Shown here in pieces: positions 15,391 to 63,156 of a stretch of DNA of 64,000 bases (positions are counted from its first letter, which is position 1; the number at the start of each line of letters is the position of its first letter). Origin of the DNA: an uncultured Chthonomonadaceae bacterium. GTDB lineage: Bacteria > Armatimonadota > Chthonomonadetes > Chthonomonadales > Chthonomonadaceae. A program made the position numbers and the translations under genes. The notes beneath the pieces were generated by a model. That model was not told where the DNA came from. It saw only the letters and a program-made list of their open reading frames with translations, and made no database searches. The stretch covers positions 672,001-736,000 of the forward strand of contig CAWIEK010000049.1 of assembly GCA_963835065.1 (NCBI GenBank). The letters run 5' to 3'.

Positions 15391-15664
15391 GAACCTTTTG
15401 CCCCACACAGCCGTCTAAACAGTAGAACACAGTCTACTATGCAGATGTTATACCCACAGGAAGGCGGAACGTTCGCAGTTCCTATCAACTATTAACTATC
15501 AACTATCAACTAAGAAGGGAGGTGCCAGTCCTATGTTTCACCCCTCCCGTTCGCCCTGACGCTTACGAGGTCACGACGCCTCTCTCCTACAACCTGACAC
15601 AACGAGACATCGGGCTGGAAGCGCTGCATTGCCAAGATTTCGACGATGACTCTACATATCCTTT
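15391..15664 (+). ncRNA. Candidate small RNA / minigene unit, copy A
   Basis: GAAC-N17-CGTCTAA promoter, (TATCAAC)n, AAGGGAGG SD, ORF MFHPSRSP* (15533-15559), conserved tail shared with copies B and C. Confidence 0.6.
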
Positions 15665-15750
15665 CATTTTAAGGACGTTTGTTGTTGACTGTACCCGTAA
15701 CGTATCCGGCGCGGGCTGCGTCTAAAGCCTAAATTTCTTTCGATGGAGAC

Positions 15751-17649
15751 ATGGCTATGCGCAAAGGTAATGCCCGGTTGCTTCCTTTACCGATTTCAAG
15801 CGGATTTTGGCTGACGCGCGCGTGTGGATTGTTCGCGTGTGGATTGCTGGCGCTGCCGGGGAATGTCGGGGCGCAATCGTCGCGCCCCGCCCCGCCTGCG
15901 GATGTGTTTGCTCAGGATACGCGGCTACGGCAGAATGTGAAGGTACACGCGCCCGGTTTGGCCGTAAAGGATTTGCTGGCGCGGCTGTCAGCGACAACAG
16001 GCGTGATGCTGACCGCCGACAAAATCACTGCCGAAGACAAAGTGATTGTTTTCAGCCCCGCGCGGCCTTTGCAGGCGACGCTTGCCGATGTTGCCGCCCT
16101 GTTCAACGATGTCTGGCGGCGGGAAACCACAAGCGACGGCAAGCCCCGCTACCTTCTCACCCGCAGCCTCCGCGCTTCCGCGCTCGAAGAAACGCTCCTC
16201 AACAAATCCCGCAATCGCCTGATGGCGCAGCTTGACGCGCAGGTAAACGCCTTAGCCGAAACGCCCGAACAACTGGCAAAGCGGCCCGCCAATGACCCCA
16301 TACGCCAGAGCCTTACGAAAGCGGAAAATCGAACCGCCACGCAGGTTTATGCCGCGCTTTCGCCCGAACAGCGCGACGTTTTGTTTTCCCGCCGCGTGAT
16401 GAACTTTGCCCCCAACACCATCAGCCCGCAGATGCGCGAACCCATCCGCAAACTCTATGAAGCCAGCATTGCCGCTATCGCCAGATTTCGGCCCCCGGAC
16501 GCCAACAACCCGCCGGAAACCCTTGCCGATTATGAGCGTCAGGGCATACAATTTGCCATTCATTCCTGCGGCGGACGGGTGACTCCTGCGATCTACGTTT
16601 ACGGCAAGGGTTCGATGCACGGCTCGCTGTTCGCGGAACTCGACGCGCGCAAGCAGTGGACATTGCCGCCACACGGCAACCCTTACGTTCAGCCCTCCCC
16701 TGCCCTGCTCCCTCCGATTGCCGAAGCCGAACAAACGCGCAAGGCCACGCAGGAAAAACAATGGCTTGACCAACTGCGCTCCCTTGCCGCGCTTACGGGA
16801 AAGCCCGTTGTGGCGGACTTCTACCGCAGCCAGCCTATCAACGCCGCTCCCATCGAGCAAAATCCTGATGCCGGCACCCCTGACAATCCTCCTGCCGCAC
16901 AAAGCCAATCCGGCAATGACGCTCCCGCCGCCAAAGCCAGCCCTGATGCGAAGGGAAGAATTAGCGCGAAGACAAAGGAGGCCGCAACAGAAAACATTGC
17001 CGCTTTAGATGATTTTTGTCGAAAAGCCGGGTATCTGTGGTGGATGCGGGCGGATGGCACACTGTTGTTCCGCAAGCGGGACTGGTACGAGCAGAAGTTG
17101 TACGAAGCGCCTGAAGATTGGCTGCATGAAACGGTGAAACATCTGGCCGCGCAAAACAACACGCCCACGCTTGCCGACTTTTTACGCGCCCGCCAACTGA
17201 CCACCCAGCAAATCCTCGGCCTGAACAGCATTTATCAGGGCGAGAACTACAGCTATTCGGAAGTGGAAGCCGTTGGCGCAACGGAACTGCTTGCGCTGCT
17301 GGACCGCCAGCTTGCCACAAGCGCCCTGTATCACCAGCCGATGAAGGTGGGCAGAACGCAATCCGCGATTTACTCTGTGGAGGGTGACAGCCTGACAGCG
17401 GCCCGCGACGCGCTGCTGGAGTTCCTGAACGCGCAGTTACAGCCGTTTGCCTTTGCAGACATAAAGTTCTTCCGCGTGGACGCCGTAAACTCGGACCGCT
17501 CTCCTGCCCCCGAAAGCGGTTTCAAGGACGCCGAACTCATGCTGATGTGCAACTGGAATCACGGCGCGGTGCGAAGCTATTACATTCGGTTGCCGCTCCG
17601 CCTGCCCGATGACCGCCAATCCGAAACCGTAATTGAACAAGCGCCGTAA
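15751..17649 (+). CDS. Hypothetical secreted protein
   Basis: 632-aa ORF, GGAG SD, signal-peptide-like N-terminus; AAC-N17-CGTCTAA upstream at 15699-15725. Confidence 0.75.
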   Translation: MAMRKGNARLLPLPISSGFWLTRACGLFACGLLALPGNVGAQSSRPAPPADVFAQDTRLRQNVKVHAPGLAVKDLLARLSATTGVMLTADKITAEDKVIVFSPARPLQATLADVAALFNDVWRRETTSDGKPRYLLTRSLRASALEETLLNKSRNRLMAQLDAQVNALAETPEQLAKRPANDPIRQSLTKAENRTATQVYAALSPEQRDVLFSRRVMNFAPNTISPQMREPIRKLYEASIAAIARFRPPDANNPPETLADYERQGIQFAIHSCGGRVTPAIYVYGKGSMHGSLFAELDARKQWTLPPHGNPYVQPSPALLPPIAEAEQTRKATQEKQWLDQLRSLAALTGKPVVADFYRSQPINAAPIEQNPDAGTPDNPPAAQSQSGNDAPAAKASPDAKGRISAKTKEAATENIAALDDFCRKAGYLWWMRADGTLLFRKRDWYEQKLYEAPEDWLHETVKHLAAQNNTPTLADFLRARQLTTQQILGLNSIYQGENYSYSEVEAVGATELLALLDRQLATSALYHQPMKVGRTQSAIYSVEGDSLTAARDALLEFLNAQLQPFAFADIKFFRVDAVNSDRSPAPESGFKDAELMLMCNWNHGAVRSYYIRLPLRLPDDRQSETVIEQAP

Positions 17650-17870
17650 AACCCGGTTTATTCCTTCTCTCTGCTACAGTGCGTTCACGTCTGCCGGGTG
17701 TTTTCAACGCTTGCTGTGAAATGGGAGGCCGGGTACCGACAAGAGCGTTCCGAGTGTTGAAAACACCCGGCAGGAAAAGGCAAGCGTCTTGCAGACGCAA
17801 CTTTCCGAAAGCAGGGGCGCGTCTGAAAGACGCTTGCTTTGTCCAGCCAGGGGTTTTCAACCCCTGGCAA
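17646..17870. repeat. Cluster of REP-like palindromes (CCGGGTGTTTTCAAC / GTTGAAAACACCCGG; CCAGGGGTTTTCAACCCCTGG)
   Basis: Between convergent genes; related hairpins near 53186 and 54583. Confidence 0.65.
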
Positions 17871-17909
17871 CAAACAGAAGAAGCCAATACGCTGTGGACA
17901 GGAACAATG

Positions 17910-19190
17910 TTATTGTTCGGCAGGCTTTGCTGATACAGAGGAAGTAGTCACAGCGGCTTGCGGCGTGGTGTTCAGAGCGAAAAAGTAAAGGCTGCGGCCT
18001 TTGCCGTCCGGCGTTTTGCTGGTCAAAATCAGCAGGCCGGGCGTTCCATCGCCGTGCGCGCTTTCCGTCACTACGTCGTAGATGTCGCCTTCCAGACGCG
18101 GCGTAAAGAACTGGTTTGCCATGCTCGGTTCGCGGGGATTGACGACGCCCACCTTCCAGCCCTGACTTACCAGTGTCAGTTTCGGCTTCGTCAGGCCGGT
18201 TGGATCGTTTTTCACGTCAATATCCTGATCCAAGTCCACATGGTAAAGCAATTGCTTGTTCAGTTTCGCCGCTGTCCATAAGCCGAGCAGCCCGCCCCGC
18301 GTCAGTTCCGCCGGCCAGCCGATTTTGTCGAAAAATTCGGGCGTGTCGCGCATGTCGAGTTGCGCCACCTGTCCGTCCGGCGTCGGGATAGGATCAATCA
18401 GCAAACTGGGATTGTTGAAATCAAGCCGGTACGCCTTCATATCGGTTGGCGAACTCGCCGCCAGTACGCGCTCCGTATTGTCCGTTTTCAGGCGGACGCT
18501 GCCCACAATGTTCAAAGACTGCGCGGCGTCCTTGCGAATATAGGTTTTGCCGTTCCATTGCCATGCGGAGCGTTCGGTCACGATCACGGTCTTGCCATCG
18601 GCTGTAAACTTGCCTGCCGCCAATTTTTCCGCGCTTCCGGGCGTATCCCCCGTGAACTCGGTGATGTACGCTTTGCCGTCCCATTTTTTCACGGTCAGGA
18701 CGCTGCTGTCTTTGGTGTCCGGCTTGACATTGAGCGTAATCAGGCGGGGAATGTGATCGCCTGCCACATCCGCAACGGCAATACGCCGCGCCGCGTCCGG
18801 CAGCATTTCCCGCGCCACGAACCGAAACAGGGCGGCGGGCGCATTGGGACGAACGCGGGGTTCCACGTAGCCGTCAAAGGAATGGTTGTGCGCCTGATAA
18901 TACGCGCCACGCTTATTGACATCCAGCGCCTCGCGCCTGCCCGTCTTGTCATCAATCGTGCCGGGACTGCCGCTGACATGGCAATACTGGCAGGCGCGGC
19001 CTTCCTTCTGCGCGTACTCCGCCGTCGCCTGTGCCGCTTGCCCGCTTCCCAATCCTAAAATCGCCAGCAGCATACAGGAAATTACAGGCAAAATACGGGA
19101 AGGTTCTGATTTTGCGTGGCTCAAAAATGCGAACATACAGCATGTCTCCAAAAGTGTCGGGCGTTCAACGTCGAATGTTTTTCTTCTCAA
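17910..19190 (-). CDS. Secreted protein with an N-terminal CxxCH motif (possible c-type cytochrome domain)
   Basis: Hydrophobic signal then AEYAQKEGRACQYCHVS; beta-rich remainder; start uncertain. Confidence 0.65.
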   Translation of the reverse strand: MRRKTFDVERPTLLETCCMFAFLSHAKSEPSRILPVISCMLLAILGLGSGQAAQATAEYAQKEGRACQYCHVSGSPGTIDDKTGRREALDVNKRGAYYQAHNHSFDGYVEPRVRPNAPAALFRFVAREMLPDAARRIAVADVAGDHIPRLITLNVKPDTKDSSVLTVKKWDGKAYITEFTGDTPGSAEKLAAGKFTADGKTVIVTERSAWQWNGKTYIRKDAAQSLNIVGSVRLKTDNTERVLAASSPTDMKAYRLDFNNPSLLIDPIPTPDGQVAQLDMRDTPEFFDKIGWPAELTRGGLLGLWTAAKLNKQLLYHVDLDQDIDVKNDPTGLTKPKLTLVSQGWKVGVVNPREPSMANQFFTPRLEGDIYDVVTESAHGDGTPGLLILTSKTPDGKGRSLYFFALNTTPQAAVTTSSVSAKPAEQ

Positions 19191-19228
19191 CGTTCAACGC
19201 TCATCGCTTGCCGCTCAACGCTTCGTTC

Positions 19229-19996
19229 TTACCGTTCATCTTCTTGACGTATTGACGGCGTGGATTCGGAGGTGCGACTGGCAAGGTAATCGTGGAAAAA
19301 TTGGGAGGAGGCAGAATCTTTTTTTTGCAGTTGCGAAGGCTTGCGCAGGTAATAAGCAAAGGCTTCGGCAAAACCTTCCTCGTCCGAATCGCCCGCGTAT
19401 TCCGTTACCAGCCGATGCGCCCGCTTTTGCGAACGCCAGATTTGCGTATAGCGGGCGCGTTCCCGGTTCGTCAGCATTTCACCCCACACGAAATGCCCGT
19501 ACTCATGCGTAAACACCAATCCCGCCTGTTCGCCGCGCAAACTGTCGCACAGGGTAATAATGGGCGTATCGTCGTCCTCATCCCCGCTCTGATAACAGCC
19601 GTCCACAACCGAATCATCGTTGCGGTCCGCTTCGTCGCCTTCCAATCGGGCAATCAAGCGCTCCATTTCGCGGGGGGGCAGTTCCCGCAGTTTGATGTCG
19701 CGGCGCGTCTTCCACACGTCCGGCAGTTCGTTGTACAGGCGAAACCACTGCTCCGCATGGGGCGCGTCTTCCCGCACCTTCAACGAGGCTTGCGAAGATG
19801 CCATGCAGACAACGCTCAGGATCAGCAGCAGGGACGTGAACAACGCAACGCGCGTTCTCATTTGCACGGGTTTTGGCGGCGTGGAAGCGGGAGGAAGCGG
19901 CAGCGTCAGGCGCGGCAGGATATTTCCGGCACAAAGCGTTTGCCATGCAGCAAAAAAGCGTTTTAGCATCAACACTTGATTCCTTACACAAGACAA
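19229..19996 (-). CDS. Putative zincin metallopeptidase
   Basis: HEYGH and EEGFAEAF motifs; TM/signal segment; start uncertain. Confidence 0.65.
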   Translation of the reverse strand: MSCVRNQVLMLKRFFAAWQTLCAGNILPRLTLPLPPASTPPKPVQMRTRVALFTSLLLILSVVCMASSQASLKVREDAPHAEQWFRLYNELPDVWKTRRDIKLRELPPREMERLIARLEGDEADRNDDSVVDGCYQSGDEDDDTPIITLCDSLRGEQAGLVFTHEYGHFVWGEMLTNRERARYTQIWRSQKRAHRLVTEYAGDSDEEGFAEAFAYYLRKPSQLQKKDSASSQFFHDYLASRTSESTPSIRQEDER

Positions 19997-20289
19997 GTAG
20001 GGAGGGTGACAGCGCGAGCGCGTATCTTTCTCTCAGATGACATGCAGCAGGGCTGCCATTGGCTGCAATAGAACTTGCCTGTTTGTAAACACAGGCATCC
20101 AGTCCTGATTGCATTATACACGGATTTCAGGCAATTTAGCGCGGCTTCCAAACGAAAATGCCTGCCATTTTTGATCCCGACGCTTCCGGCGCGCGGTGGT
20201 CAACAAAATGGCAGGCATGGGGCAACAGCGTCAGGACTGCCGCCGACAAACGCAAGCCTATTTCAACTCGGCTTTACTTCTCGCCGATG

Positions 20290-20586
20290 TTACTTCTTGT
20301 CGGATTCGAGGGCGAGTTTGCACTCCGCGAGAGCCTGCTGCGTCAGGTCCATCGCCTTTTCGCGATGCCCGGCGAAATCATGCGCGGCATTTTGCAGGTT
20401 GTTTTTGGCCTGCTCCAGATTCCGCATGGCTTTGCGAATTTCCGGGTGGCGTTCCCCGCCCTTGCGCGGAGCCGGAATGGGCGTCTGTGCCGAAGCCGGG
20501 GTGATTTGCGGGATGATGAACGCTCCACTCAGCATCAGCAGCCCCGCCGTGCCAAGCGTAATGGTTTTGGATGTTTTGTTCCACAT
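20290..20586 (-). CDS. Small secreted helical protein
   Basis: MWNKTSK signal-like start with GGAG SD; HPEIRKA...HDFAGHREKA. Confidence 0.7.
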   Translation of the reverse strand: MWNKTSKTITLGTAGLLMLSGAFIIPQITPASAQTPIPAPRKGGERHPEIRKAMRNLEQAKNNLQNAAHDFAGHREKAMDLTQQALAECKLALESDKK

Positions 20587-20988
20587 GGTTGTTTTTTCTC
20601 CACTTTGTTCGTTTTTACAATGCAGCAGCTCGATGAGCGATGTTGGTAAGAATTGCGCGTATTGCCCTACAACACCGTTCACAATCTTCGACGCAGGCCG
20701 AAAAGGAATGTTCAGTATTCCTAAAACAATTTTCATGCGCCCTGAACGTACTTGTCATAGAGAAGATATTTACGAGCAGACATTGGTGTTCCTGAGACTG
20801 TTGCCGTCAACTCTTTACGTCCGGCTGATTGACATGAAGCGGAATTCGGGCTATTATAGCAAAGCGAAATCGTTGATGCGGCGAAGGAACAGCAAACCTG
20901 CGCCTCGCCTGCAACGAACCTGCGCGAAGCCGACAACAAACACGCAGCAAGCCTGCGTTTAAGGCAGCAAGCCTGCATCTAATAAGGT

Positions 20989-22626
20989 ATGTTTATGAGT
21001 GAGCCGGAAAGAAAAGAAAAACCGACGGAAACCGACCCAATCAATTTAGAATCGCTGTTTGCGCCCGTGCCGAACGCGGAAACGCACTGGCAGCGTTTTG
21101 AAGAACTGGTGCAGAACGACGCGCAGCACTTTTTTGATGGCGTCGGCCCCATCGCCGGGGCGCGCGCTCCAGGACGTTTGGACGTGATGGGCGGCGTAGC
21201 CGATTATTCCGGCAGCCTGGTGCTGGAAATGCCGATTGCCCATGCCTGCTGCGCCGCGATCCAATGGCGCAGTGATCGCGTTTTGCGCGTCCGCAGTTTG
21301 GGCGCGACGGCGGAAGGCTTCGCGCAGGATGTTACGGTTCCTCTCACGGACTTGCTGAATGACGATGGCTTGCCCCGCGCCCCTGAAGACGTTCGCGCCC
21401 GACTGACCGGCGATCCACAAACGCGCTGGGCCAGTTACGTTGTCGGCTGTTTTTACGTCATGCTTGCCGCCTATGCCAAAGCGCCCACAACCGCCCGCGA
21501 GGACGCGCGTTTGGGCGAATCGGGCGCAAACATCTTAATATGGAGCGAAGTGCCGCTTGGCGCGGGCGTGTCATCATCCGCCGCTCTCGAAGTCGCCACC
21601 ATGCACGCCCTGAGCGAAGCCGCCGGTATCCATCCCAGCGACCTGACTCTCGCCTCATGGTGTCAGCGCGTGGAAAACACCATTGTCGGCGCTCCATGCG
21701 GCATCATGGATCAGGTCACGTCCGCGCTTGGCCGCCAAAACGCGCTCCTTGCTCTGCGCTGCCAGCCCCACGATTTACTCGGCAACCAACAGCTTCCGCC
21801 CGGCTGGCGGCTTGTCGGCATTGACAGCCGCGTGAAACATTCCGTCGGGGGCAGTCACTACACGCAGGCGCGGGTAGGCGCGTTTATGGGCTTGAAGGTA
21901 ATCCAACTGGAAAGCGGCGGCAAATTGCTGGAAAACTACCTGTGCAAAATGAAGCCGGATGAATTCGCAAAGTACCGCGACCTGATTCCTGAAACCATTA
22001 CGGGCGCGGAGTACCATGAACTGTATGGCCGCCTGCCCGATCTTGTCACCCGCGTTGACCCTGAAGCGACGTACCATCCCCGCGCCTGCGCCGAGCATCC
22101 CATACTGGAAAACGAGCGCGTCGGCACGTTCATCGCCTTAATGCACATCGCCAGCCTCCGCGCCGAAGAACAGCTTAACGAAGCGCCGCGCGGCGCGACA
22201 CAGGACAACAAGGAAGCCGCAACGGAAATGGCTCCTGCACCCGACGCGCAACTGCGCCCTGACGCCCTTCACGCGAACACCCTGCACGGCGATCCGCAAT
22301 TGCTGCGCCAGGCGGGACAGTTGATGTACGCCAGCCACGCCTCCTACGGTGAGCGGCTCCATCTCGGTTCGCCGGAAACCGACCTGCTGGTAGAATTGAT
22401 ACGCGAACGGGGCGAAGCGCGCGGTTTGTACGGCGCAAGAATCACGGGCGGCGGCGCGGGCGGCACGGTTGCCGTCCTGTGCGCGGACAATTCGCCCGAT
22501 GTGGACGCCGCGCTTGTGGAAATCTGCCGCGAGTACCACGCCCGCACCGACATCACGCCCCGCGCCTTTGTCGGCAGCTCGCCCGGCGCCATCCTCTTCG
22601 GCGCGCGGCAAATCATGCGAGGATAA
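20989..22626 (+). CDS. GHMP kinase, galactokinase/arabinokinase-like
   Basis: RAPGRLDVMGGVADYSG, VPLGAGVSSSAA, PCGIMDQ, GARITGGGAGG. Confidence 0.9.
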   Translation: MFMSEPERKEKPTETDPINLESLFAPVPNAETHWQRFEELVQNDAQHFFDGVGPIAGARAPGRLDVMGGVADYSGSLVLEMPIAHACCAAIQWRSDRVLRVRSLGATAEGFAQDVTVPLTDLLNDDGLPRAPEDVRARLTGDPQTRWASYVVGCFYVMLAAYAKAPTTAREDARLGESGANILIWSEVPLGAGVSSSAALEVATMHALSEAAGIHPSDLTLASWCQRVENTIVGAPCGIMDQVTSALGRQNALLALRCQPHDLLGNQQLPPGWRLVGIDSRVKHSVGGSHYTQARVGAFMGLKVIQLESGGKLLENYLCKMKPDEFAKYRDLIPETITGAEYHELYGRLPDLVTRVDPEATYHPRACAEHPILENERVGTFIALMHIASLRAEEQLNEAPRGATQDNKEAATEMAPAPDAQLRPDALHANTLHGDPQLLRQAGQLMYASHASYGERLHLGSPETDLLVELIRERGEARGLYGARITGGGAGGTVAVLCADNSPDVDAALVEICREYHARTDITPRAFVGSSPGAILFGARQIMRG

Positions 22627-22636
22627 AAAAAGAGTA

Positions 22637-22940: not shown

Positions 22941-22960
22941 AATACGTATTGGAGGTTGAT

Positions 22961-26916: not shown

Positions 26917-26928
26917 CTGGAGTCGCTC

Positions 26929-52617: not shown

Positions 52618-52731
52618 ATTTCAGGTGTCCCTTCCATGACCACCTGCCTAACTAGTATACTCTTTTTTCGGCGTTCCTTGAAAAGCAAAGCCTTCTCAGT
52701 TCAGGACCGGCGCATATAAACGAGAAAAGAA

Positions 52732-53013
52732 AAAGGATATGTAGAGACAGCGTCGAAATCTTGGCAATGCAGCGCTTCCAGCCCGGTGTCTCGTTGTGTC
52801 AAGTTGTGAATAGAGAGGCGTCGTGGCCTCGTGAGCGTCAGGGCGAACGGGGAGAGTATACAGGCATCTTCTTGCACCTCCCTTCCGGGTTAGTTGAGAG
52901 TTGAGAGTTGAGAGGAACTATGAACTCTCAGCATCCCGCCACCTGGCTAGTTCGCAGCCTAATTAGTAGACTTGATGTATAGTTTTAGACGATGATGGAG
53001 GCAGAGAAGGTTC
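52732..53013 (-). ncRNA. Candidate small RNA / minigene unit, copy B
   Basis: GAAC-N18-CGTCTAA promoter, (CTCTCAA)n, AAGGGAGG SD, ORF MPVYSPRSP* (52867-52838), conserved tail. Confidence 0.6.
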
Positions 53014-53286
53014 GTTATTTCTGCTGTTTAATCCGATATTTTTCTACTTTTTTGTGTTCTTTTTGGCTTGGGCAACCTGGAGGAGGGACGCAGGCGCAAC
53101 AGTGGGGGCGAATGTACCTACGATGGGATACGTGTTGAGCATTTTAAATACGCCGGCCTTGCTCCTCAGTTCGAGACACCTTGTTCCGGGCGTTGAAAGC
53201 CCCTGTCGAACGGAAGAACGGACTAATGCCTGTCATAGCGTCGCAGCAACGCTTTCATTGCGGGCGTTTTCGCCTTCTTCATGGCG

Positions 53287-54556: not shown

Positions 54557-54631
54557 AGCGTCAGAAGCGTATCCTGTCTGTTGCCGGGGATTTTCAATCC
54601 CCGGCCAGTAGTTGATTTGTACATTACGATG

Positions 54632-57600
54632 TTATTGCATGGCTTGTTCAATCGCTTCTTCCAGCGTCAGCGCGCGTCCCTGTTCCCACACTTGCGTAAA
54701 CTCTTCTTCTCCCAAAGCGGCGCGGGCGGCGAGCAGGCGGGGTGTTTCCGCGACATTTTCCGGCGGCATGGGCATCAGGAGGGATTCGCGCAGGGTTTGC
54801 GCGACGGCGAACAACAGCACGGCGCGACGCTCCTGCCCCTGTACCGCGAACATGGCGGCAACGGCATCCAGCGTGTAAAACAGGCCCGGCTTATCCCCCG
54901 ATTGGACGCTGATTGTCAGCCGTTCCTCAAAGCAGCGCCGCGCATAACTGTAATCCTGCTGCGCGGAAGCGGTTTTCCCCAGGCTGTACAGCACGGCGGA
55001 CAATAAATCCCGATACGACAATTCTCTGGCAAGCGTCAGGCTTTCTTCAAACAAAATGCGGGCCGCGTTGTAGTTGCGCAGTTCATGCTCTACGCAGCCC
55101 AATCGGTGCAGCGTTTTGGCGGTCAATTCGCGGTCATGCAGGCTGCGCGCAAGCGCCAGTTCTTCGGCGTACAGGCGGCGCGCGTCCGAAAAGTTTTTGC
55201 GGTAAAAAGCCCGGTGCGCCAGACCATGCAGCGCTCCGGCAATCAAACTCTTATCCCCAAGTTCCGTGCCGATTGCCAGCCCTTCCTCGAAGTGACGCTG
55301 CGCCGCTTCATGGTCACCTTCGTCACTGGCAACCACGCCCAAATAATTCAGCGTGACGGCAACCTGAGTCGCCCCCGCGTGTTCCCGATGGATGGCAAGC
55401 GCCTGCGCGAAATATACCCTTGCCTGCGCATAGTCGTGGCGGTTCCAGGCCATTTGTCCCAGGCTGTGCAGCGCATTAGCGCGTATCGCGGGATCATCGC
55501 GCTCGTTTCCCACGCTGAGACTCTCCTCAAAATAAGCCTGGGCAGTCGCATGGTCGCCCTGAAAGCAGGCCAACATTCCCACGCCGTTCAAAGCTTCCGC
55601 CCGCGTCGGCGTGTTTCCCAAAGGCCGGGTTCGTTCCAAAACGTTGGCGAGAATTTGCCGTCCCAAACTCAAATAGCCGCGCTTGTGCCAGAACCGCCAC
55701 AAGGCGGAAGCCATTTGCAGGCCGCGCTCTGCCGTTTCGGGCTGCGCCAAACTCCATTCCAGCGCTGCACGCAGGTTGTCATGCTCCCTTTCCAGCCAAT
55801 TCAGCCACCATGCCTGCTGCTTCCCCTGCAAGTTCGGATGGGCTTCCTCCGCCAGCCGCAAATAATAGTCCAGATGCCGTTCCCGCGCTTCCTGCGCCCC
55901 TGCCTCATTTTCAAGTTCCTGCCGGCTGTACTGCCGAACCGTTTCCAAAAGCCGATACCGCGCTTCCCCACCCTCCTGTTCATAAATCACCAGGGACCGA
56001 TCCACCAGGCGGGAGAGGCCATCTATTGTCAATTGACGATTGCCGATTGCCGATTGGGTTCCTCCTGTTCCCTGTTCCCTATTGCCTAATTCCTGTTCTT
56101 CTGTCTTCTCTTCTTCTCTTCTTCTCTTCTTCTCTTCTGTTCCCTGTTCCCTGTTCCCTGTTCCCTGCCAGGTCGCTTCCGCCGCTTCCAGCGTCCAGCC
56201 GCCGACGAAGAGAGATAAAATGTGCAGCATGGCGCGATCTTCACTTGAAAGCAGGTCGAAACTCCACTTCATCGCCGCTTCCAGCGTCCGTTGACGGGAC
56301 AAGGCGGTGCGAGGGCCGTTTGTCAGCAGTTGAAAGCGGTCATTGAGGCGGGCGGCGATCTGTTCTACCGGCAATGCTTTCACGCGGGCGGCGGCCAGTT
56401 CCAGAGCGAGGGGGATGCCGTCCAATTGCCGACAGATTTGGATGACGGCAGGCGCGTTTTGAGGGGTCAAAACAAAATCGGCTTGCGCCTGTGTCGCGCG
56501 CTCGACGAAGAGTTGAATGGCCGCGTAGGAATGGAGGAAGTCCGCGAGGGAAGCCCTGTCAATGGGTGTTAAATTCGCGTCCGGCAGCGTAAGGGAAGCG
56601 ACGCGCCACACGCTTTCGCCCTGCACATCCAGGGGCTGCCTGCTTGTCGCCAGAATACGCAGGGCGCGGCACTGTTGGAGCAAAGATTCGGCTAAATCCG
56701 CGCATGTTTCAATGAGATGTTCGCAGTTGTCGAGTATCAGCAGCAGCTGTTTGTCGTTCAGGAATTCCTGCAGGGTTTGCAGCAGTGGGCGATCTGGCGC
56801 TTCGCTTACGCCCAGCATTGCCGCCATCATTTGCGCGATTTGCGCTCCATCCGTCAGGGCCGACAAATCTACGAAACACGCGCCGTCCGAAAAGTTACCG
56901 CTCAGTTCCTCGGCCAGTTGTATTGCCAGCCGGGTTTTGCCAATGCCCCCCGCCCCGGCGAGCGTCAGCAAACGCGCCTGACTCAGCCGCGCTAGAATCG
57001 CTTCCATTTCCTTTTCACGCCCGATAAGGGCCGTCAGGGGAACAGGCAATCGGCGCAGGCGCGGAGAGTTTGGGAACTCCAATGCAGAGGTTTTCGTTGT
57101 TGCCGTATCTGATGAAGCAATTATCAATGCAGCGGTTTCTATTACGGCAGTATCTGGTGACGCAGGTGTTAAGGACGCTGGTTCCAAAGAAGCCGGTTCT
57201 GCTTCCGCTTCCCTTGTCCCGCTTGTTTCCACCGGAGTTTCGTTTTTTGTTTCCGATACTGGGCGCGGCTTATCACGCAATTTTGTCCGAAGCTGCTGAT
57301 ACAGGGTTGTGATTTCCTGTCCGGGAAGCGCGTTCCGCTCACGGTGCAGTTTGAGGCTGAATTCCTGATACGTTTGTAAAGCCGCGTACACATTGCCACT
57401 TTGCGCCAGGGCTTCCATCAGGCCGCGCAGCGCCGACTCGCGCAGGGGATCCACTTCCATGACACGCCGCAGGCAGCGTACCGCTGTTTCCCATTCGTTC
57501 GCCGCCATCGCCATCGCGCTTCGCGCCTGCAAAACCTGCAGATATTGCTGTTCCCGCGCTTCCCGTTCGGCTAACGCCCACGACTCGGTACACTCCTTCA

Positions 57601-58018
57601 GCAACGGCCCCGTATAACAGGCCAGCGCAAGTTCCAATGACGCGGCATCACTCCGCGCGCACAACGCATCCCATTCCGCAACGTCTACAGAAGCGTTTTC
57701 AATAGCAAGGCACAGGGAGTCCGGCGTGGGAGAATGAAGGCGAAAACTCTGCGTTCCCAATGCCTTGCGCAGATTGGTCAACCCGCGGCGCAGGTTGTAC
57801 GCCGCCTGATCTACCGCATGGTCAGGAAACGGCCATAGTTCCTGCGCCAGCCACGCCCGCTTGACTGGTTTCCCTCCCCGCAAGGCAAGCAAAGCCAGCA
57901 GCCACAACTCCTTACGCGAGCGCAGTTTGGGCAGGGACAAGCCATTCACCCGCGCGTCCATTGCGCCGAACAATTTTATTGTCAGGGGAGGAGTTTCGCC
58001 GTCGCTGTCGCGTTCCAT
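54632..58018 (-). CDS. AfsR/SARP-type regulator: wHTH-BTAD, NTPase, TPR repeats
   Basis: IKLFG, DPLRESA, LIGREKE, LAGAGGIGKTRLA, LDNCEHL, LDGIPLALELAAAR. Confidence 0.92.
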   Translation of the reverse strand: MERDSDGETPPLTIKLFGAMDARVNGLSLPKLRSRKELWLLALLALRGGKPVKRAWLAQELWPFPDHAVDQAAYNLRRGLTNLRKALGTQSFRLHSPTPDSLCLAIENASVDVAEWDALCARSDAASLELALACYTGPLLKECTESWALAEREAREQQYLQVLQARSAMAMAANEWETAVRCLRRVMEVDPLRESALRGLMEALAQSGNVYAALQTYQEFSLKLHRERNALPGQEITTLYQQLRTKLRDKPRPVSETKNETPVETSGTREAEAEPASLEPASLTPASPDTAVIETAALIIASSDTATTKTSALEFPNSPRLRRLPVPLTALIGREKEMEAILARLSQARLLTLAGAGGIGKTRLAIQLAEELSGNFSDGACFVDLSALTDGAQIAQMMAAMLGVSEAPDRPLLQTLQEFLNDKQLLLILDNCEHLIETCADLAESLLQQCRALRILATSRQPLDVQGESVWRVASLTLPDANLTPIDRASLADFLHSYAAIQLFVERATQAQADFVLTPQNAPAVIQICRQLDGIPLALELAAARVKALPVEQIAARLNDRFQLLTNGPRTALSRQRTLEAAMKWSFDLLSSEDRAMLHILSLFVGGWTLEAAEATWQGTGNREQGTEEKKRRREEEKTEEQELGNREQGTGGTQSAIGNRQLTIDGLSRLVDRSLVIYEQEGGEARYRLLETVRQYSRQELENEAGAQEARERHLDYYLRLAEEAHPNLQGKQQAWWLNWLEREHDNLRAALEWSLAQPETAERGLQMASALWRFWHKRGYLSLGRQILANVLERTRPLGNTPTRAEALNGVGMLACFQGDHATAQAYFEESLSVGNERDDPAIRANALHSLGQMAWNRHDYAQARVYFAQALAIHREHAGATQVAVTLNYLGVVASDEGDHEAAQRHFEEGLAIGTELGDKSLIAGALHGLAHRAFYRKNFSDARRLYAEELALARSLHDRELTAKTLHRLGCVEHELRNYNAARILFEESLTLARELSYRDLLSAVLYSLGKTASAQQDYSYARRCFEERLTISVQSGDKPGLFYTLDAVAAMFAVQGQERRAVLLFAVAQTLRESLLMPMPPENVAETPRLLAARAALGEEEFTQVWEQGRALTLEEAIEQAMQ

Positions 58019-58260
58019 GCCTTCGTGCTGCCTGCGCTTTCTTTCCGCTACGAAACGTCATAGTCTTCCGTGTTCAGCGGCTCAGACGCCTTTTATGGTA
58101 TCAATTCTGATCCGGCTCCTTCCACAGCAGAGGGGCGGGAGTGGACGGGGCGGGCAGATGTGGGAAACCAGTGAAATCCGCAGCGGCAGGGAAGGCAGAG
58201 GAATATACATCTTCTGCTTCCGTTACCTGTTCTGTCTTCCAGGGAACAGGGGTGTCTTCT

Positions 58261-58773
58261 TCAGAGATGATAGTAGACCAAGCCGCACGAGGTGAGCGCG
58301 TACCCAATCAGGGCGCGTTCGCCCAATCCCGGCGACATTAAAAACAGAATAGGAACCGCAACCATGCTGCCGCTGAGGATGATAAGAAACGTGTTGAAGT
58401 TGTCAAAGGCCATCACGCCGAACCATCCCCACACCAGCAGGCAGACGAGTACAAACAGTTCCAAATGCAGACTGCTCGCAGGCGGCGTCATTCCCACTGC
58501 CAGCAGTCCAGGCACAAGCAAAAGCAGCAAAACCGAACGGACGATATAGCCTTTCGCAAACAACTTGCGAACCAGGATACCGATTACGCCGCATAGCGAC
58601 GCAATCAGCCCCCAGGCCATCGGGTTGCCTTCCGCCAATTCAAAACTGACGGCGCGATGCAGGCTATGCGCTCCCGCGATATGCAGCGTCATGGTCAGCG
58701 CCCCGGCAAGCAGCAATAACGTTCCCATCAATTTAGACTGCATCCCGCTATCCTGTACAAACTTGAGGGACAT
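58261..58773 (-). CDS. Hypothetical integral membrane protein
   Basis: Hydrophobic 170-aa ORF immediately after the binding-protein gene. Confidence 0.65.
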   Translation of the reverse strand: MSLKFVQDSGMQSKLMGTLLLLAGALTMTLHIAGAHSLHRAVSFELAEGNPMAWGLIASLCGVIGILVRKLFAKGYIVRSVLLLLLVPGLLAVGMTPPASSLHLELFVLVCLLVWGWFGVMAFDNFNTFLIILSGSMVAVPILFLMSPGLGERALIGYALTSCGLVYYHL

Positions 58774-58779
58774 GCCGTG

Positions 58780-59829
58780 TTAGGAACCCGGTTTGAGAAG
58801 TTTCTGCACGTCGGGCGTGTTGAGGTTGTCTTTGGTGACGACCATCACGCCGCTGTCTTGCAGCTTTTTGTCAATTGTTTCCTTCTTGATGGCTTTGAGG
58901 ACGGTTTCCACGCCCTGATAGCCCATCTGATACGGGTTTTGCACGATCAGCGCCTGAATGGTTCCCTCCTGCAAGCCCTTGATTTCATCTTCGGAACTGT
59001 CGAAGGCGACCAGTTTCACTTTGCCTTCCAATTTCTTCTGCTTCAGCACCTGCGCCGCGCCCTCGCCATTGGGCTGATTGGCCGCGAAAATGCCCGCAAG
59101 GTCTTTGTTGGCGGTCAGCATGTCGTTGGTGCGGTCTACCGCTTTGGTCGGGTCGCCGCCTTCCAGATTGGAAACCACGTGGATGTCGGGATACTTCTTC
59201 ATCGCTTCCAGAAAGCCGCTTTCCCGCTCATCGTTGGAAGCCGAACCTTTTTTGAAAATCAGAATCCCGACATTGCCCTTTTTGCCGATGGCTTCGGCCA
59301 GTTTGTCCGCCGCGAGCTGCCCGCCCTTGACGTTATCGGTAGCGATATAGCAGACGGAATCATCCTTGCCTTTCAGCAGCCCGGAGTCAACCGTCACCGT
59401 GGGAATGCCCGCTGTTTTCGCCGCCGTGACCGGCTGCGCGAGGGCTTCCGAGTCCACTGCCGCTAAGACGATGCCGTCTACCTTGTTGCTGATCTGCGTG
59501 GATACCACGTCTACCTGCTGCGTGACATCGTTCTCCGTTGCAGGACCCTGCCAAATAATTTCGACATTGCCCAGTTTCTTTGCCGCATCGTCCGCGCCCG
59601 CCTTGACTCCAAGCCAAAACGAATTCGCCGTGCCTTTGGGAATCACGGCAATCCGCAAACTCTTGCCCTCACCCCCACTCCCGCCCATATTTCCCCCGGC
59701 TGTCGAATGCGTGGAAGTTCCTCCCGAGGCTGCGCCCCCGCTGCCACTATTCTCCTTCGGACACCCCCACAGCATCACGCCGCACAACCCACTCAACGCC
59801 AACACGCCCATTTTTTGCACTGCTCGCAT
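58780..59829 (-). CDS. Sugar ABC transporter substrate-binding lipoprotein (RbsB-like)
   Basis: Lipobox LWGC, IAVIPKG, IATDNVKGG, VQNPYQMGY. Confidence 0.93.
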   Translation of the reverse strand: MRAVQKMGVLALSGLCGVMLWGCPKENSGSGGAASGGTSTHSTAGGNMGGSGGEGKSLRIAVIPKGTANSFWLGVKAGADDAAKKLGNVEIIWQGPATENDVTQQVDVVSTQISNKVDGIVLAAVDSEALAQPVTAAKTAGIPTVTVDSGLLKGKDDSVCYIATDNVKGGQLAADKLAEAIGKKGNVGILIFKKGSASNDERESGFLEAMKKYPDIHVVSNLEGGDPTKAVDRTNDMLTANKDLAGIFAANQPNGEGAAQVLKQKKLEGKVKLVAFDSSEDEIKGLQEGTIQALIVQNPYQMGYQGVETVLKAIKKETIDKKLQDSGVMVVTKDNLNTPDVQKLLKPGS

Positions 59830-59844
59830 GGTTTCTCCTTGGAA

Positions 59845-59952
59845 AGTAGTCAGTAGTCAGTAGTCAGTAGTCAGTATCTGTCCTACTCATTCCCTTTGCC
59901 AACGCACAAGGCTTTGAGTAGATAAGCATTTCTACTGACTACTCCCTACTGC
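59845..59952. repeat. Heptamer-arm inverted repeat (AGTAGTC)n / (GACTACT)n
   Basis: Between the permease stop and the SBP start; core ends GCATTT like the spc copies. Confidence 0.8.
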
Positions 59953-60990
59953 CTACCCCCTACTCCCCCGTTTTCTCCCCGGCCCGAACCGGTCGTACAG
60001 CACGGCCAGAATTACGATGGCGCCGACGATAGCGCGCTGTAAATCCGGGCTGACATTGTTCAGGGCGCAGCCGTTGCGGATGGTGAACATCAGCAGCGCG
60101 CCAATGATGGTTCCCGGTATGCCGCCCTGCCCGCCAAACAGGGAGGTGCCGCCGATAACAGTGGCGGCAATGGCATACAATTCATAACTGTTGCCCGCAT
60201 CATACGGAGCGCTGCCGGTGCGCGAAATGCTGACGACAGCAGCGATCCCCGCGAGCAGGCCCGACAAAGCGAAAACCGAAATCACGGCTTTGTTCAGCGA
60301 AATGCCGGACAGCCGCGTCGCTTCCCGATTGCCGCCCAGCGCGTACATCGTCCGGCCCCAGCGCGTTCGCGTCAGCAGAATGCTCATCGCTACGGCGACA
60401 CTCACCATAATCAGCACGGCATAAGGAATACCGTCTCTGGCCGGACCACCGAACAATTCGCCATTCCCGAACGTCTCAAACCCCCGCGCAAGCCCGCCGA
60501 TGTTTTTCGATCCCGACAGCAGGCCGCTTGCGCCGTATACCACGCCCATCATGCCCAATGTCACAATGAAGGACGGGATTTTGCCGAACGCAGTAATCAG
60601 ACCGGTCAGCGTTCCTGCCGCCAGGCCGGATACAATCGCCAGCAGCACGGCGGGCCACACGCCCACGCCATGATGCGCCATCGCTTCCGCGGCGGCAACA
60701 CCGGCAAACGCCATCACCGCGCCTACCGACAGGTCTATATTGCCGGAAATAATCACTGCCGTCTGCCCACACGCCAATATCGCAATTACAGCGGACTGAA
60801 CGGCGATATTCTTGAGATTGCCGCGTTCCGCGAAATGCGGGACGCGCAACGCCAGCACAATCCCAAGTAACAGCAGAAACGAGAGCGGAGCCAGCGTGCT
60901 GGACAAGCGCTGCACCCACGTCGCCTGCGCCGGAGATGGCGACAGGGGAGACAATTGCGGATCACTTTGCGGAAGGGACGCCGTCCCCAT
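59953..60990 (-). CDS. Sugar ABC transporter permease (RbsC-like)
   Basis: GNIDLSVG, IPSFIVTLG, GGNREATRLSGI, IAATVIGGTSLFGG. Confidence 0.94.
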   Translation of the reverse strand: MGTASLPQSDPQLSPLSPSPAQATWVQRLSSTLAPLSFLLLLGIVLALRVPHFAERGNLKNIAVQSAVIAILACGQTAVIISGNIDLSVGAVMAFAGVAAAEAMAHHGVGVWPAVLLAIVSGLAAGTLTGLITAFGKIPSFIVTLGMMGVVYGASGLLSGSKNIGGLARGFETFGNGELFGGPARDGIPYAVLIMVSVAVAMSILLTRTRWGRTMYALGGNREATRLSGISLNKAVISVFALSGLLAGIAAVVSISRTGSAPYDAGNSYELYAIAATVIGGTSLFGGQGGIPGTIIGALLMFTIRNGCALNNVSPDLQRAIVGAIVILAVLYDRFGPGRKRGSRG

Positions 60991-61491
60991 AACTCGTGCC
61001 CTTTCCTCTAACAGCAGCCACTCTGCTGACTATGTTTCTGCTTTTCAACAGCAGCGTGTTCACCTGCCTTGCTGCGCAGGCCGTTCGATGCGCCAACAAA
61101 GCAAAATTTGCGCTGCCTTGAAAACGTAAACACAATCATAGCAGACTGAACGCGGCCTGTCAATTCGTTTTTTGATTCCGTCCCTGTACTCAGAACGCGG
61201 GAGACATGCAAACTTATATTTTTCGCTTCGCGCCAACTGAACATTTCGCTTTTCACTGCGTCCATAAGCGCAGGAACCCCATGCGTCCTGCATACTTTGG
61301 ATACTTTCCTTGCGAAAACCTGAACATTTGCGTACGCTCGGCTATTTTAGCAGGATTTTATCATGTCATGCTCTAATGATTAGATTAGTGGTATTCTTAA
61401 CATGAGAATTTTTAATTTTTCTGACGAAGAGTTCATTTGCTGACATCAATGCTATTGAAGATTTGAGACATGTTCGCGAACCCGGATACAC

Positions 61492-62889
61492 ATGCGCCAT
61501 TCTTTGCCACCAACCGTATCTATCTACTTGGACACGCTGCGGCGTCCACGTCTTTTGTTTGCTTCCATTTTGGACGGCTCTGCGCTGGCTTCGGCCTTGA
61601 TGTGGGTTGTCATGCTGGGCATTCTGGCGGGCGTTACAGGCGTTTACGCCGCCCTGCAAGGCAAAACCGGCTTGGGGCAGGACTGGTGGCGCGATTTCCC
61701 CATGAAGCGCGCCGTGTTTTTCTCCGTTTGGTTCTGCCTGACCGATGTGCTGTGGGCAACCTTGCTCACCTGGGCGCTGGCGCGACTGGCGCGTGAAACC
61801 CTGCGCTTCGACTCCCTGCTCACCGTCCTTTGCCTTGCTTCCGCGCCGTGCCTGCTCACCACGCTAACGTTTCCAATGCGCGATTTGAGTTGGACGGCCC
61901 TGCATGTATGGCAGGGGCTGAATATCTTCGTCATTGTGTGGGTATCTATTCTCATTTGTATGGGCGTTCAGGCTTGCCTGAATACTTCGCTCGGCAAAGC
62001 CGCGCAGTGCAGTCTTCCCGCCCTGCTGATTCTATGGGCCATCGGTGTCAGGGCGCATAAAGCCCCGCCCACAAATTTTCGCGCGGCCTGTCGGTGGGAG
62101 CAATGGGAAGGCAGGCATGTTCGCCTGTTCATGCTGCCGGGAAAAAGCCCGAAAGAAGTTTCTTTGCTGGCGCAGGGACTGGACGAGCTGACCGAAAAAG
62201 ACGACGCCGCGCTTGGAGAATCGTCCCTGCCTTTCAAAATAGACTTTTTCTGCTTTGACGACGATTTGCAGCAGCGGCATTTCGCCGGCTCTGCGGAAGA
62301 ACCCACCGACACCGCCCATACCTTCTTCGACTGCGTGACTTTTTCCTACGACACCTGGGAGAACCTTCGCCCGCAAATGGCGCATGAGATTTGCCATGTG
62401 ATTCTGGCGAACCGCCTGACCGACAAGGTGCATGGCCTGCTGGATGAAGGATTGTGCGAGTATGTCGCGCATACGGTAACAGCAGACCCTGACGCGCTTT
62501 CCCCCACGCCCGCCACAGCCCTGCCCCTGCGCGTCCTTGCCCGCCCGGAAGTGTTTTTCGACTGGGATTTATTGCACGAAAAAGGCGTGGAGGACGAAGA
62601 AGCCGATTGGAAGCACTACCGCGCCGCCGAATCGCTGACCGCCTATCTGATTAAACGCTCCGGCATGGCAAAGTTCAAAAATCTGTATTGCCGCTACGCC
62701 CTGCATGGCCGCGACAATGACCCGGACAATGACGAGGGCAAGCAGCTTGCCCATGCGGTTCAGGATGTCTATGGGATTTCGCTTGCCGAACTGGAACATC
62801 AATGGCGCGCGGACGCGGTTTCTGCAATCCTTCCTGACCCGCTGCCTGCGCCGTCCGATTTGCAGCCATCTCATTCTTCGGGTTCGTAA
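61492..62889 (+). CDS. Yip1-like membrane domain fused to a gluzincin-type peptidase domain
   Basis: About five TMs then AHEICH...LDEGLCEY. Confidence 0.7.
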   Translation: MRHSLPPTVSIYLDTLRRPRLLFASILDGSALASALMWVVMLGILAGVTGVYAALQGKTGLGQDWWRDFPMKRAVFFSVWFCLTDVLWATLLTWALARLARETLRFDSLLTVLCLASAPCLLTTLTFPMRDLSWTALHVWQGLNIFVIVWVSILICMGVQACLNTSLGKAAQCSLPALLILWAIGVRAHKAPPTNFRAACRWEQWEGRHVRLFMLPGKSPKEVSLLAQGLDELTEKDDAALGESSLPFKIDFFCFDDDLQQRHFAGSAEEPTDTAHTFFDCVTFSYDTWENLRPQMAHEICHVILANRLTDKVHGLLDEGLCEYVAHTVTADPDALSPTPATALPLRVLARPEVFFDWDLLHEKGVEDEEADWKHYRAAESLTAYLIKRSGMAKFKNLYCRYALHGRDNDPDNDEGKQLAHAVQDVYGISLAELEHQWRADAVSAILPDPLPAPSDLQPSHSSGS

Positions 62890-62904
62890 ATCAATAATAT
62901 CCCG

Positions 62905-63156
62905 AAAGGATATGTAGAGGCATCGTCGAAATCTTGGCAATGCAGCGCTTCCAGCCCGGTGTCTCGTTGTGTCAAATTGTAGGAGAGAGGCGTCGTGACC
63001 TCAGCAGCGTCAAGGCGGATGGCAGTGTTCAGGCATCTTCTTGCGCCTCCCTTCCTGAGTAAGTAGTTGATAGTTGATACGAACTCGAACGTTCAACTTT
63101 CTTGTCTAAATAGTAGACACTTGTACTTTTAGACGGGTATGTTGTGCAAAAGGTTC
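62905..63156 (-). ncRNA. Candidate small RNA / minigene unit, copy C
   Basis: GAAC-N17-CGTCTAA promoter, (TATCAAC)n, AAGGGAGG SD, ORF MPEHCHPP* (63036-63010), conserved tail. Confidence 0.6.

Follow-up and report, generated by a model that had tools for sequence, protein, structure and literature searches.

Three copies of a promoter-minigene unit

What is a compact unit made of a promoter, a minigene and a conserved tail doing at three separate places in one stretch of bacterial DNA? We analyzed 64,000 nucleotides (hereafter the window) from an uncultured Chthonomonadaceae bacterium, G000. A preliminary description had reported three units, and the coordinates, peptides, CCY-TGA-CGCT stop context and tail that it gave were all found in the sequence. 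The parts of each copy are as follows.

Copy A
15340..15390 (+), A-tract region 5' of the -35 box, putatively UP-element-like; 152 copies show an A-rich profile here
15391..15418 (+), ECF-type promoter boxes GAACCTT (15391-15397) and CGTCTAA (15412-15418)
15432..15439 (+), conserved GTCTACTA, predicted transcript 5' end
15488..15508 (+), heptamer tract, optional, from a separate repeat family
15514..15522 (+), Shine-Dalgarno (SD) sequence GAAGGGAGG; the 16S 3' end of this genome is GATCACCTCCTTTC
15533..15559 (+), minigene MFHPSRSP-TGA
15567..15582 (+), hairpin P1, 7 nt 3' of the stop; present in 157/162 copies
15604..15652 (+), long irregular hairpin P2/P3, invariant apex AGCGCTGYATTGCCA at 15620-15634
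15653..15668 (+), conserved TACATA, then a T-rich run; probable 3' end, no canonical intrinsic terminator

Copy B
53143..53171 (-), left shell end: target duplication at 53162-53171, ISAs1-type terminal inverted repeat at 53143-53161
52985..53013 (-), ECF-type promoter boxes
52964..52971 (-), GTCTACTA
52877..52885 (-), SD
52838..52867 (-), minigene MPVYSPRSP-TGA
52732..52830 (-), tail: P1 52815-52830, P2/P3 52744-52792, end 52732-52743
52692..52720 (-), right shell end: terminal inverted repeat at 52702-52720, target duplication at 52692-52701 (9/10 identical to the left one)

Copy C
63129..63156 (-), ECF-type promoter boxes
63111..63118 (-), GTCTACTA
63046..63054 (-), SD
63010..63036 (-), minigene MPEHCHPP-TGA
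62905..63002 (-), tail: P1 62987-63002, P2/P3 62917-62965, end 62905-62916
62880..62898 (-), MITE end remnant (second family); it overlaps the stop codon of ORF 61492-62889, which converges on the copy

As reported earlier, copy C converges on a neighboring gene, the ORF at 61492-62889 (+). The heptamer tract had been counted among the shared parts. It is present in A, B and C but proved to be optional in the family (60 of the 152 copies with a locatable promoter); it belongs to a separate genome-wide repeat, 98 of whose 119 loci lie away from units.

Family size and distribution

The three copies are real but form part of a family of 162 in G000 (nhmmer, 80 to 131 bits), nearly all of them intact. 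Comparison with relatives yielded further copies in two congeners, 13 in G001 and 47 in G002. Covariance models found 0 copies in 65 further genomes from the order and no match in 39 other genomes of the family or 150 of the phylum, in each case under strict filters and with only the top candidates scored. Outside the genus, promoter and minigene patterns matched at control level only. Plasmid and phage collections held no match to the unit, and pattern scans of metagenomic and viral sequences returned 4 and 11 matches, respectively. The unit layout was absent from all of them, and 11 of these matches, when scored with the model, reached at most 14 bits. The Rfam covariance search gave no match at the gathering threshold and a single chance match at E 0.38, in agreement with the earlier remark that the unit was not recognized as a known family. 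The family is also undescribed in the literature searched, a coverage that excludes most subscription journals. On these sequence searches, the unit family appears to be restricted to the genus.

Units show no orientation bias relative to the replication strand (75/162). DNA contigs over the unit reach 80 to 400 times the depth of the flanks, a summed depth that does not equal copy number, and no junction spanning an empty unit site was found among these contigs. Among the sequencing runs listed for the unit, none was of RNA, a result that is uninformative about expression.

A likely alternative-sigma promoter

ECF-sigma promoters follow the consensus AAC / GTC(T/A)A, and such boxes, spaced by 16 to 18 nt, were found in 148 of the 162 copies. 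Strict matches to the promoter fall in unit copies in 127 of 155 cases, and 34 of the 41 other promoter PWM matches are intergenic. In part of the congener copies, the promoter appears to be of a different class. There are 57 sigma region-2 matches in G000. The unit would probably be transcribed by an ECF-type alternative sigma factor.

Selection on the minigene

Judged from the alignment, the minigene is under coding-type selection, which supports the earlier claim that it is translated. A Pro codon precedes the stop in 216 of 218 aligned copies, with CCC, CCT, CCG and CCA all in use; on the tree, positions 1 and 2 of this codon changed once per site and position 3 changed 34 times. Four Arg codons are likewise in use. 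The stop had been described as a fixed TGA, which does not hold: TGA (182 copies) is joined by TAA (35) and TAG (1) among the 218, and all changes are from stop to stop. The distance from ATG to stop is 27 or 30 nt in 154/162 copies and off-frame in 5; peptides typically have 8 or 9 residues, and minigenes across the family have 8 to 16 codons.

A recoding cassette would need a fixed TGA and a conserved frame downstream of it. Stop swaps and tail indels in all frames led us to reject selenocysteine readthrough, a +1 frameshift at CCC-TGA and a coding tail. Occlusion of the SD by the ORF is possible in MFHP-type copies but is weak when compared with synonymously recoded sequences (median z, -0.69), and the LPP type lacks it.

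Residues -3 to -1 are under selection, and the N-terminal part varies freely, giving more than 60 peptides. The released Pro/Arg-rich peptides could themselves be the active product, as a signal or as a binder of the ribosome tunnel. The selected residues would agree with this, as would a possible likeness to proline-rich tunnel-binding peptides; however, the free N-terminal part, the absence of an export signal or modifying enzyme nearby, and a tail left unexplained render the peptide reading highly improbable.

PP-stop is a known termination staller (PMC3985003, 10.1101/751305). Endings of the PP* type occur in 13/13 copies of G001, 7/42 of G002 and 38/162 of G000, a trend towards fewer PP* endings as copy number rises, and host proteins avoid PP* (6 vs 28.9 expected; LPP*, 0 vs 4.3). 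Against the reading that we favor below, RSP* is the majority ending (119/162 in G000 and 27/42 in G002), and host proteins show no avoidance of SP* (29 vs 20.2 expected; for RSP*, 0 vs 1.1 is uninformative). A stalled ribosome shields 12 to 15 nt beyond the P site (PMC8012679). P1 starts 13 nt beyond the point where the Pro codon begins, a position that we count in favor of ribosome holding at the Pro-stop.

The conserved tail

The spacer between stop and P1 is fixed at 7 nt. Covariation support for the tail is moderate. P2/P3 contains 22 double-sided compensatory cells, compared with 6.3 in shuffles; pair-type counts are not above shuffles. The predicted folding of individual tails does not surpass that of shuffled sequences (z, -1.5 to +1.5), and this result and the pair-type counts weigh against the reading favored below. 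About 85 columns are invariant in sequence, more than a plain ribosome sponge needs, an observation that runs against our favored reading.

Conceivably, the active part is the tail, acting as a small RNA (sRNA) by pairing or by binding a protein, with the minigene as its sensor: dwell at the Pro-stop would set tail folding or half-life and report release-factor or EF-P status. The invariant apex and linker, the fixed spacer and the compensatory changes would suit this role, as would a weak promoter-like site 5' of efp; no RF3 was found in the three genomes, which also fits. Conversely, complementarity of the core to 16S and 23S rRNA is at shuffle level, no tRNA is prominent in a scan run without shuffle control, no neighboring gene is conserved, and both the spacing of the units and the need for 162 copies are left unexplained. 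We regard an effector tail as unlikely.

Genomic context

The arrangement of uORF, hairpin and U-run is attenuator-like, and the gene 3' of the unit lies on the same strand in 61/161 copies. In 100/161, however, that gene is on the opposite strand and the unit faces its 3' end (P = 0.003), and the neighboring genes have no common function. A cis-acting leader, or attenuator, of the genes downstream is barely credible on these counts, as the preliminary description had held. A TnaC-like arrest-peptide attenuator was rejected in the same way, for lack of a fixed codirectional downstream gene.

Carriage by MITEs and selection after insertion

Target duplications of ISAs1 are 10 bp long. Copy B sits within a MITE that has such a duplication and terminal inverted repeats, its shell ends being 19-bp CAG-ended repeats. 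The 19-mer is identical to the ends of PF13808 (ISAs1) elements in G002; no intact ISAs1 element with it was found in G000 or G001. About 30 other copies carry MITE ends, which lie outside the unit. Both shell ends were located in 14 to 17 of the 162 copies, depending on the mismatches allowed, and of 17 copies in which both were present, 10 have target duplications identical at 7 to 10 of 10 positions. A second shell type also occurs, and most copies have no ISAs1-type shell. General bounding repeats did not exceed shuffled pairs, so the units are not all bounded by one inverted-repeat pair.

These ends raise the possibility that the unit is selfish or neutral MITE cargo, conserved only through recent copying. 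A MITE or REP end lies near 85/162 copies, compared with 140/2095 control intergenic regions; just 6 of 27 informative congener sites are shared; and the genus restriction of the family and the shell repeat shared with G002 elements point the same way. The pattern of change does not. Private changes number 13 to 20 per site in the spacers, 0.7 in the core and 0 in the stop and Pro codons. Synonymous and stop-to-stop changes also occur. G001 copies have no paired shell ends. In 10 copies, target duplications are mismatched at 9/100 positions since insertion, compared with 4/850 in the core; because the core is about 10-fold more conserved than the duplications, the cargo was evidently selected after insertion. 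The cargo reading is largely refuted, and we hold it to be very unlikely. A MITE match explaining the tail had been named as one finding that would undo the original proposal. Such ends exist on copy B and about 30 others, but the tail is kept by selection; MITE carriage would account for the spread of the unit, not for its tail.

Spacing between copies

Unit copies rarely lie within 10 to 15 kb of one another. Gaps below 10 kb number 4, against 22.1 expected, and four other repeat families are random or clumped. Median gaps are 21 kb for convergent, 36 kb for tandem and 48 kb for divergent neighbors, which fits an additive model with 10.6 kb downstream and 23.8 kb upstream of each unit (permutation P = 0.0002). 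The exclusion also acts between copies that have the ISAs1-type shell and copies that lack it (1 vs 7.2), and the sole pair less than 5 kb apart consists of two copies without promoter or ATG. Local hopping was rejected as the cause, as neighbors are no more alike than random copies. G002 has 0 gaps below 13 kb, against 3.3 expected (P = 0.027); its polarity is not significant (P = 0.09). Promoter score is weakly related to spacing (rho 0.24 with P = 0.014; P = 0.16 when two groups are compared). In Escherichia coli, negative supercoil domains reach 23 kb (PMC9071471). The downstream half-distance of 10.6 kb is shorter than the 25-kb positive domain of E. coli, which counts against our favored reading, as do the weak link with promoter score and the nonsignificant polarity in G002.

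A purely trans-acting sibling sRNA, as first proposed, does not explain polar self-exclusion over 10 to 25 kb; from that interpretation, the stand-alone multicopy unit and the translated minigene remain. Alternatively, the unit could act on the chromosome in cis. A stalled ribosome would drag RNA polymerase and leave about 24 kb upstream of each unit negatively supercoiled, and some 160 units would tile the chromosome and so set its topology under stress. Such a device would account for selection on every copy, and an exclusion that is specific to units, independent of shell, polar and additive, and seen again in G002 speaks for it. Yet the 13 copies of G001 and the gaps of up to 500 kb in G002 are too sparse for tiling, a 217-kb gap exists in G000, avoidance of tRNA loci extends over no more than 5 kb (4 vs 9.1), and the spacing may be costly instead of beneficial. 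We find this rather improbable.

Comparison with known systems

The bar minigenes of phage lambda reportedly combine an SD, a mini-ORF and a stem-loop, act through translation and depend on rare codons. RAPP-type arrest peptides carry C-terminal R-x-P or P-P, as the unit does. The closest known system is CreT of Pseudomonas aeruginosa, which likewise has its own promoter, a strong SD, a Pro-stop mini-ORF with free synonymous codons and a hairpin 3' of it; SD, mini-ORF, PP-stop and hairpin suffice for bacteriostatic toxicity (10.64898/2026.06.02.729485). In CreT2, both prolines are required, nonsynonymous substitutions (Ser and Leu in the legend) abolish toxicity, and only the structure of the hairpin mattered (10.64898/2026.06.02.729485); with mostly RSP* endings and invariant columns in the unit, these findings weigh against our favored reading. 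An SD, a mini-ORF and a downstream hairpin are all present in the unit, as in CreTA, but the unit does not belong to CreTA. In the published description, a cas locus has a single CreT module, which is under CreA-Cascade repression and has a 15-nt ORF with strict PP (10.64898/2026.06.02.729485), whereas the unit has 13 to 162 dispersed copies per genome, no cas link that was found, longer ORFs ending mostly in RSP*, a sequence-invariant tail of about 100 nt, an ECF-type promoter and polar spacing. No cas1 was found in the two congeners with units (97% and 80% complete) and no Cas5d family member in the three genomes. A search for a CreA guide to the promoter, covering 99 repeat-spacer pieces, gave only chance-length matches of 10 to 14 nt.

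Haloarchaeal tRNA-sequestering CreT (PMC8501985) also works with SD, mini-ORF and stem-loop via translation but depends on particular rare codons, unlike the unit with its four Pro and four Arg codons. TnaC and other Pro-stop stallers end in R-x-P or P-P, as here; such termination-arrest leaders (PMC3985003, PMC8012679) occur in single copy and act in cis on one set downstream gene, which the unit does not. ISAs1-derived MITEs have the repeats and duplication of the copy B subset, and MITEs that carry promoters or sRNAs are reported (PMC5896051, PMC10969869); in the unit, by contrast, cargo is kept under selection while the shell decays, and most copies lack the ISAs1-type shell.

Discussion

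We favor, at a probability of about 0.45, a sigma-gated, dose-amplified RNA that holds ribosomes, with spacing arising from transcriptional supercoiling. Each stand-alone copy would be transcribed from its likely alternative-sigma promoter into an RNA of 170 to 300 nt. The strong SD would load a ribosome, which would likely be held at the conserved Pro-stop, and the predicted hairpin P1, which follows the stop by 7 nt, may protect the RNA at the mRNA entry channel. Joint induction of all 162 copies would tie up ribosomes and thereby slow translation, in the manner of the CreT toxin. The putative growth-slowing role would be controlled through sigma/anti-sigma, not CRISPR; no antitoxin or repressor was found, which counts against the reading. 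The spacing would be the cost of overlapping supercoil domains among strongly co-induced promoters. A wider version, possible but doubtful, would make the unit a new class of chromosomal element. Switched on by stress and anchored by its ribosome, such a transcription unit would have been seeded by MITEs and retained by selection about every 35 kb; it would both park ribosomes and set local supercoiling, so that one sigma alters translation and topology together.

If the favored reading is true, minigene RNA toxins would extend beyond CRISPR guards and could be tamed into a brake on translation that is amplified by dose. With its 218 natural variants, the family forms a test set for x-Pro-stop stalling contexts and for the effect of a hairpin at the entry channel. 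Finally, whatever its function, this 162-copy promoter family with its polar, additive exclusion distances (upstream about 24 kb, downstream about 10 kb) may provide a natural readout of how twin-domain supercoiling acts on genome layout, which is difficult to examine in native genomes.

Family size and range

Each unit consists of a promoter, an SD, a minigene ending in a proline codon and stop, and a conserved tail. Inspection of the sequence bore out the three units reported in the window:

15391-15664, plus strand, copy A
52732-53013, minus strand, copy B
62905-63156, minus strand, copy C

The family is indeed multicopy. A profile of the three tails recovered 162 copies in the 8.0-Mb source genome (G000), the weakest still scoring at least 80 bits. 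Covariance models gave 47 matches (one a 3′ fragment) in the congener G002 and 13 in the congener G001. They detected no unit when applied to 39 additional family members, 65 additional members of the order, and 150 genomes sampled from the phylum. An Rfam search with the unit, as suggested in the preliminary description, returned no match, and the literature that we searched held no description of the family. Three copies were truncated:

L153 (G002), 3′ half only
L154 (G002), SD and promoter lost
L180 (G000:C54:109077), promoter and leader without minigene or tail

A full minigene and tail (MLCLLPLPP-stop, 111 bits) was also found at L089:359-501 (minus strand), on a contig titled Solirubrobacteraceae. 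This copy begins right at the ATG, without SD or promoter, and represents either a transfer or an assembly chimera.

Minigene and coding selection

The proline codon and stop at the anchor were kept in all 162 G000 copies. One parser linked an in-frame ATG to the SD in 153/162; the ATG-to-stop distance was 27 or 30 nt in 154/162, five copies had 26 or 28 nt, and no such distance was found for the remaining 3. The alignment comprised 218 sequences: all 162 G000 copies, 42 of the 47 G002 matches, the 13 G001 copies, and a single stray. The final codon was proline in 216, with all four proline codons used, and the stops were TGA (182), TAA (35), and TAG (1). On the tree, the proline codon had changed 34 times at position 3 and once at each of positions 1 and 2. 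Judged by this pattern of change, the minigene appears to be translated. Stop readthrough and frameshifting were rejected because tail indels occurred in all frames.

The G000 peptides ended in RSP (119 copies), RPP (27), HPP (6), RAP (5), or LPP (5); RSP accounted for 27/42 endings in G002, and PP for 13/13 in G001. Across these three genomes only, the share of PP endings drops with rising copy number from 13/13 to 38/162, which may reflect dose compensation. Among 5996 host proteins predicted by a simple gene caller, terminal PP was rarer than expected (6 versus 28.9) and LPP was absent (0 versus 4.3), SP was not depleted (29 versus 20.2), and RSP was too scarce for depletion to be judged. 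No RF3 C-terminal domain was found in G000, G001, or G002, and two further members of the family likewise gave none scoring over the cut-off.

Promoter and orientation

AAC and GTC(T/A)A boxes 16 to 18 nt apart, plus a second GTCTAC, were present in 148/162 copies, and 127 of the 155 strict matches in the genome lay within copies. Outside them, 34/41 position weight matrix hits were intergenic, which agrees with the expectation for real promoters. We presume the promoter to be of the ECF type from its resemblance to the ECF consensus. About ten G002 and five G001 copies carried CTTCTAAA...ATAT in place of the boxes; the promoter therefore seems to be exchangeable. The downstream gene lay on the opposite strand in 100/161 cases, so the unit is not a cis-leader, as had been argued from copy C. 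Weaker promoter matches were seen upstream of efp (L172, G000:C49:86169) and upstream of a sigma-70 group 2/3-type gene (L171, G000:C63:47650); a third (L170, G000:C24:106553) is located where an ECF sigma gene ends, ahead of a zinc-finger anti-sigma-like gene.

MITE carriage and selection after insertion

Depending on the mismatches allowed, 14 to 17 copies lay between 19-bp CAG-ended inverted repeats; in 10 of 17, a 10-bp target duplication was at least 7/10 identical. The identical 19-mer terminates ISAs1-family transposase elements in G002; no intact element of this kind was found in G000. The ends of a second MITE flanked nine other copies on both sides. Of 27 informative congener sites (37 examined), 6 held a copy in G000.

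In the target duplications of 10 inserted copies, 9/100 paired positions differed, a rate at which about 38 of the 850 core positions would be expected to have changed neutrally. Only 4/850 had changed, three by the same change; selection on the core therefore continues after insertion. MITE ends, which the preliminary description had raised as a possible explanation of the tail, thus do flank some copies, B included, but they do not account for the conserved core. The family is real and under selection.

Other repeats were also noted. A remnant at L177:2626-2826 (minus strand; G000:C48:46625-46825) adjoins a CAG-type inverted repeat; its peptide motif is one that we take to be ISAs1-like, and a Pfam search gave no match. 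The genome also contains three or more additional families of MITE or REP type (about 69, 124, and 26 loci; e.g., G000:C1:163958-163989), which are nested in each other, and heptamer tracts occur at 119 loci genome-wide.

Tail structure

Hairpin P1 begins 7 nt past the stop in 157/162 copies, 13 nt beyond the first base of the proline codon. This is near the 12 to 15 nt protected by a stalled ribosome (PMC8012679). The invariant apex sits on a long irregular hairpin (P2/P3). In 31 sequences, a 21-pair model had 92.8% of cells paired (41 to 59% when slid), with 22 double-sided changes versus 6.3 in shuffles and 4 covarying pairs, not above shuffles; kinship of the sequences inflates both counts. 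Single tails folded no better than shuffles, and copy B and two divergent G001 copies formed P2/P3 unaided. Because the counts are mixed and inflated and single folds stay at shuffle level, the modeled structure has moderate support.

About 85 tail columns are conserved as sequence, which suggests a partner; a search for one among rRNA, tRNA, and neighboring genes found none. That the tail is an effector gated by the ribosome is, in our judgment, a serious rival reading, though well below even odds.

Spacing of copies

Copies avoid one another. Compared with placement in intergenic slots, the 105 adjacent pairs on contigs showed a deficit of short gaps: 1 versus 10.9 expected below 5 kb, 4 versus 22.1 below 10 kb, 9 versus 32.0 below 15 kb, and 19 versus 41.2 below 20 kb. 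The sole pair less than 5 kb apart comprised two dead copies. Four other repeat families were spaced randomly or clumped. Copies inside an ISAs1-type shell of MITE ends and copies lacking this shell likewise excluded each other, and adjacent copies were not kin. In G002, no gap was below 13 kb (3.3 expected; p 0.027).

Gap size depended on orientation (permutation p 0.0002), with medians of 21.2 kb for convergent (27), 36.3 kb for tandem (58), and 47.5 kb for divergent pairs (20), which are additive as about 23.8 kb upstream plus 10.6 kb downstream. The G002 medians followed the same order (52, 71, and 116 kb; polarity not significant, p 0.09). Promoter score correlated weakly with gap size. 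In Escherichia coli, the negative twin domain extends up to 23 kb and the positive one up to 25 kb (PMC9071471); our upstream value agrees with this, whereas the downstream value does not. A cis-acting supercoiling device is a serious rival reading of the unit, though well below even odds. At least 18 tRNA genes (G000:C49:430274-447719) directly adjoin a divergent copy at C49:429511.

Relation to CreT and proposed action

The neighbors of copy A in the window are as follows:

9429-10613, plus strand, reverse transcriptase adjoining cas1
10781-11452, plus strand, cas1 with an internal stop, beside the reverse transcriptase
from 11933, CRISPR array of 26 repeats
14170-15203, minus strand, toxin-antitoxin-like HTH_17 and PIN_3 gene pair, divergent from copy A

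The RT-Cas1 adaptation module (9429-13900) lies about 1.5 kb from copy A, and the ORFs listed at 12306-14028 fall inside the array.

The nearest experimental system is the Pseudomonas aeruginosa CreT proline-codon toxin, whose SD, mini-ORF ending in PP-stop, and hairpin are each required for bacteriostatic arrest (10.64898/2026.06.02.729485); termination stalling at PP-stop is established (PMC3985003, 10.1101/751305). Nevertheless, the unit is not a CreTA member: no cas1 was found in the two congeners (97% and 80% complete), a search of 99 repeat-spacer pieces for a CreA-type guide gave nothing beyond chance-length matches of 10 to 14 nt, the tail is invariant in sequence, and most copies end in RSP, whereas both prolines were required in CreT2 (10.64898/2026.06.02.729485).

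By analogy, we favor, at a probability of roughly 0.45, a model in which the SD, the mini-ORF ending in Pro-stop, and the hairpin would cause translational arrest as in CreT. An alternative sigma factor would gate the unit, copy number would amplify its effect, and the spacing would reflect a topological cost. The unit belongs to no family tested and, most plausibly, would resemble a minigene RNA toxin in its action.
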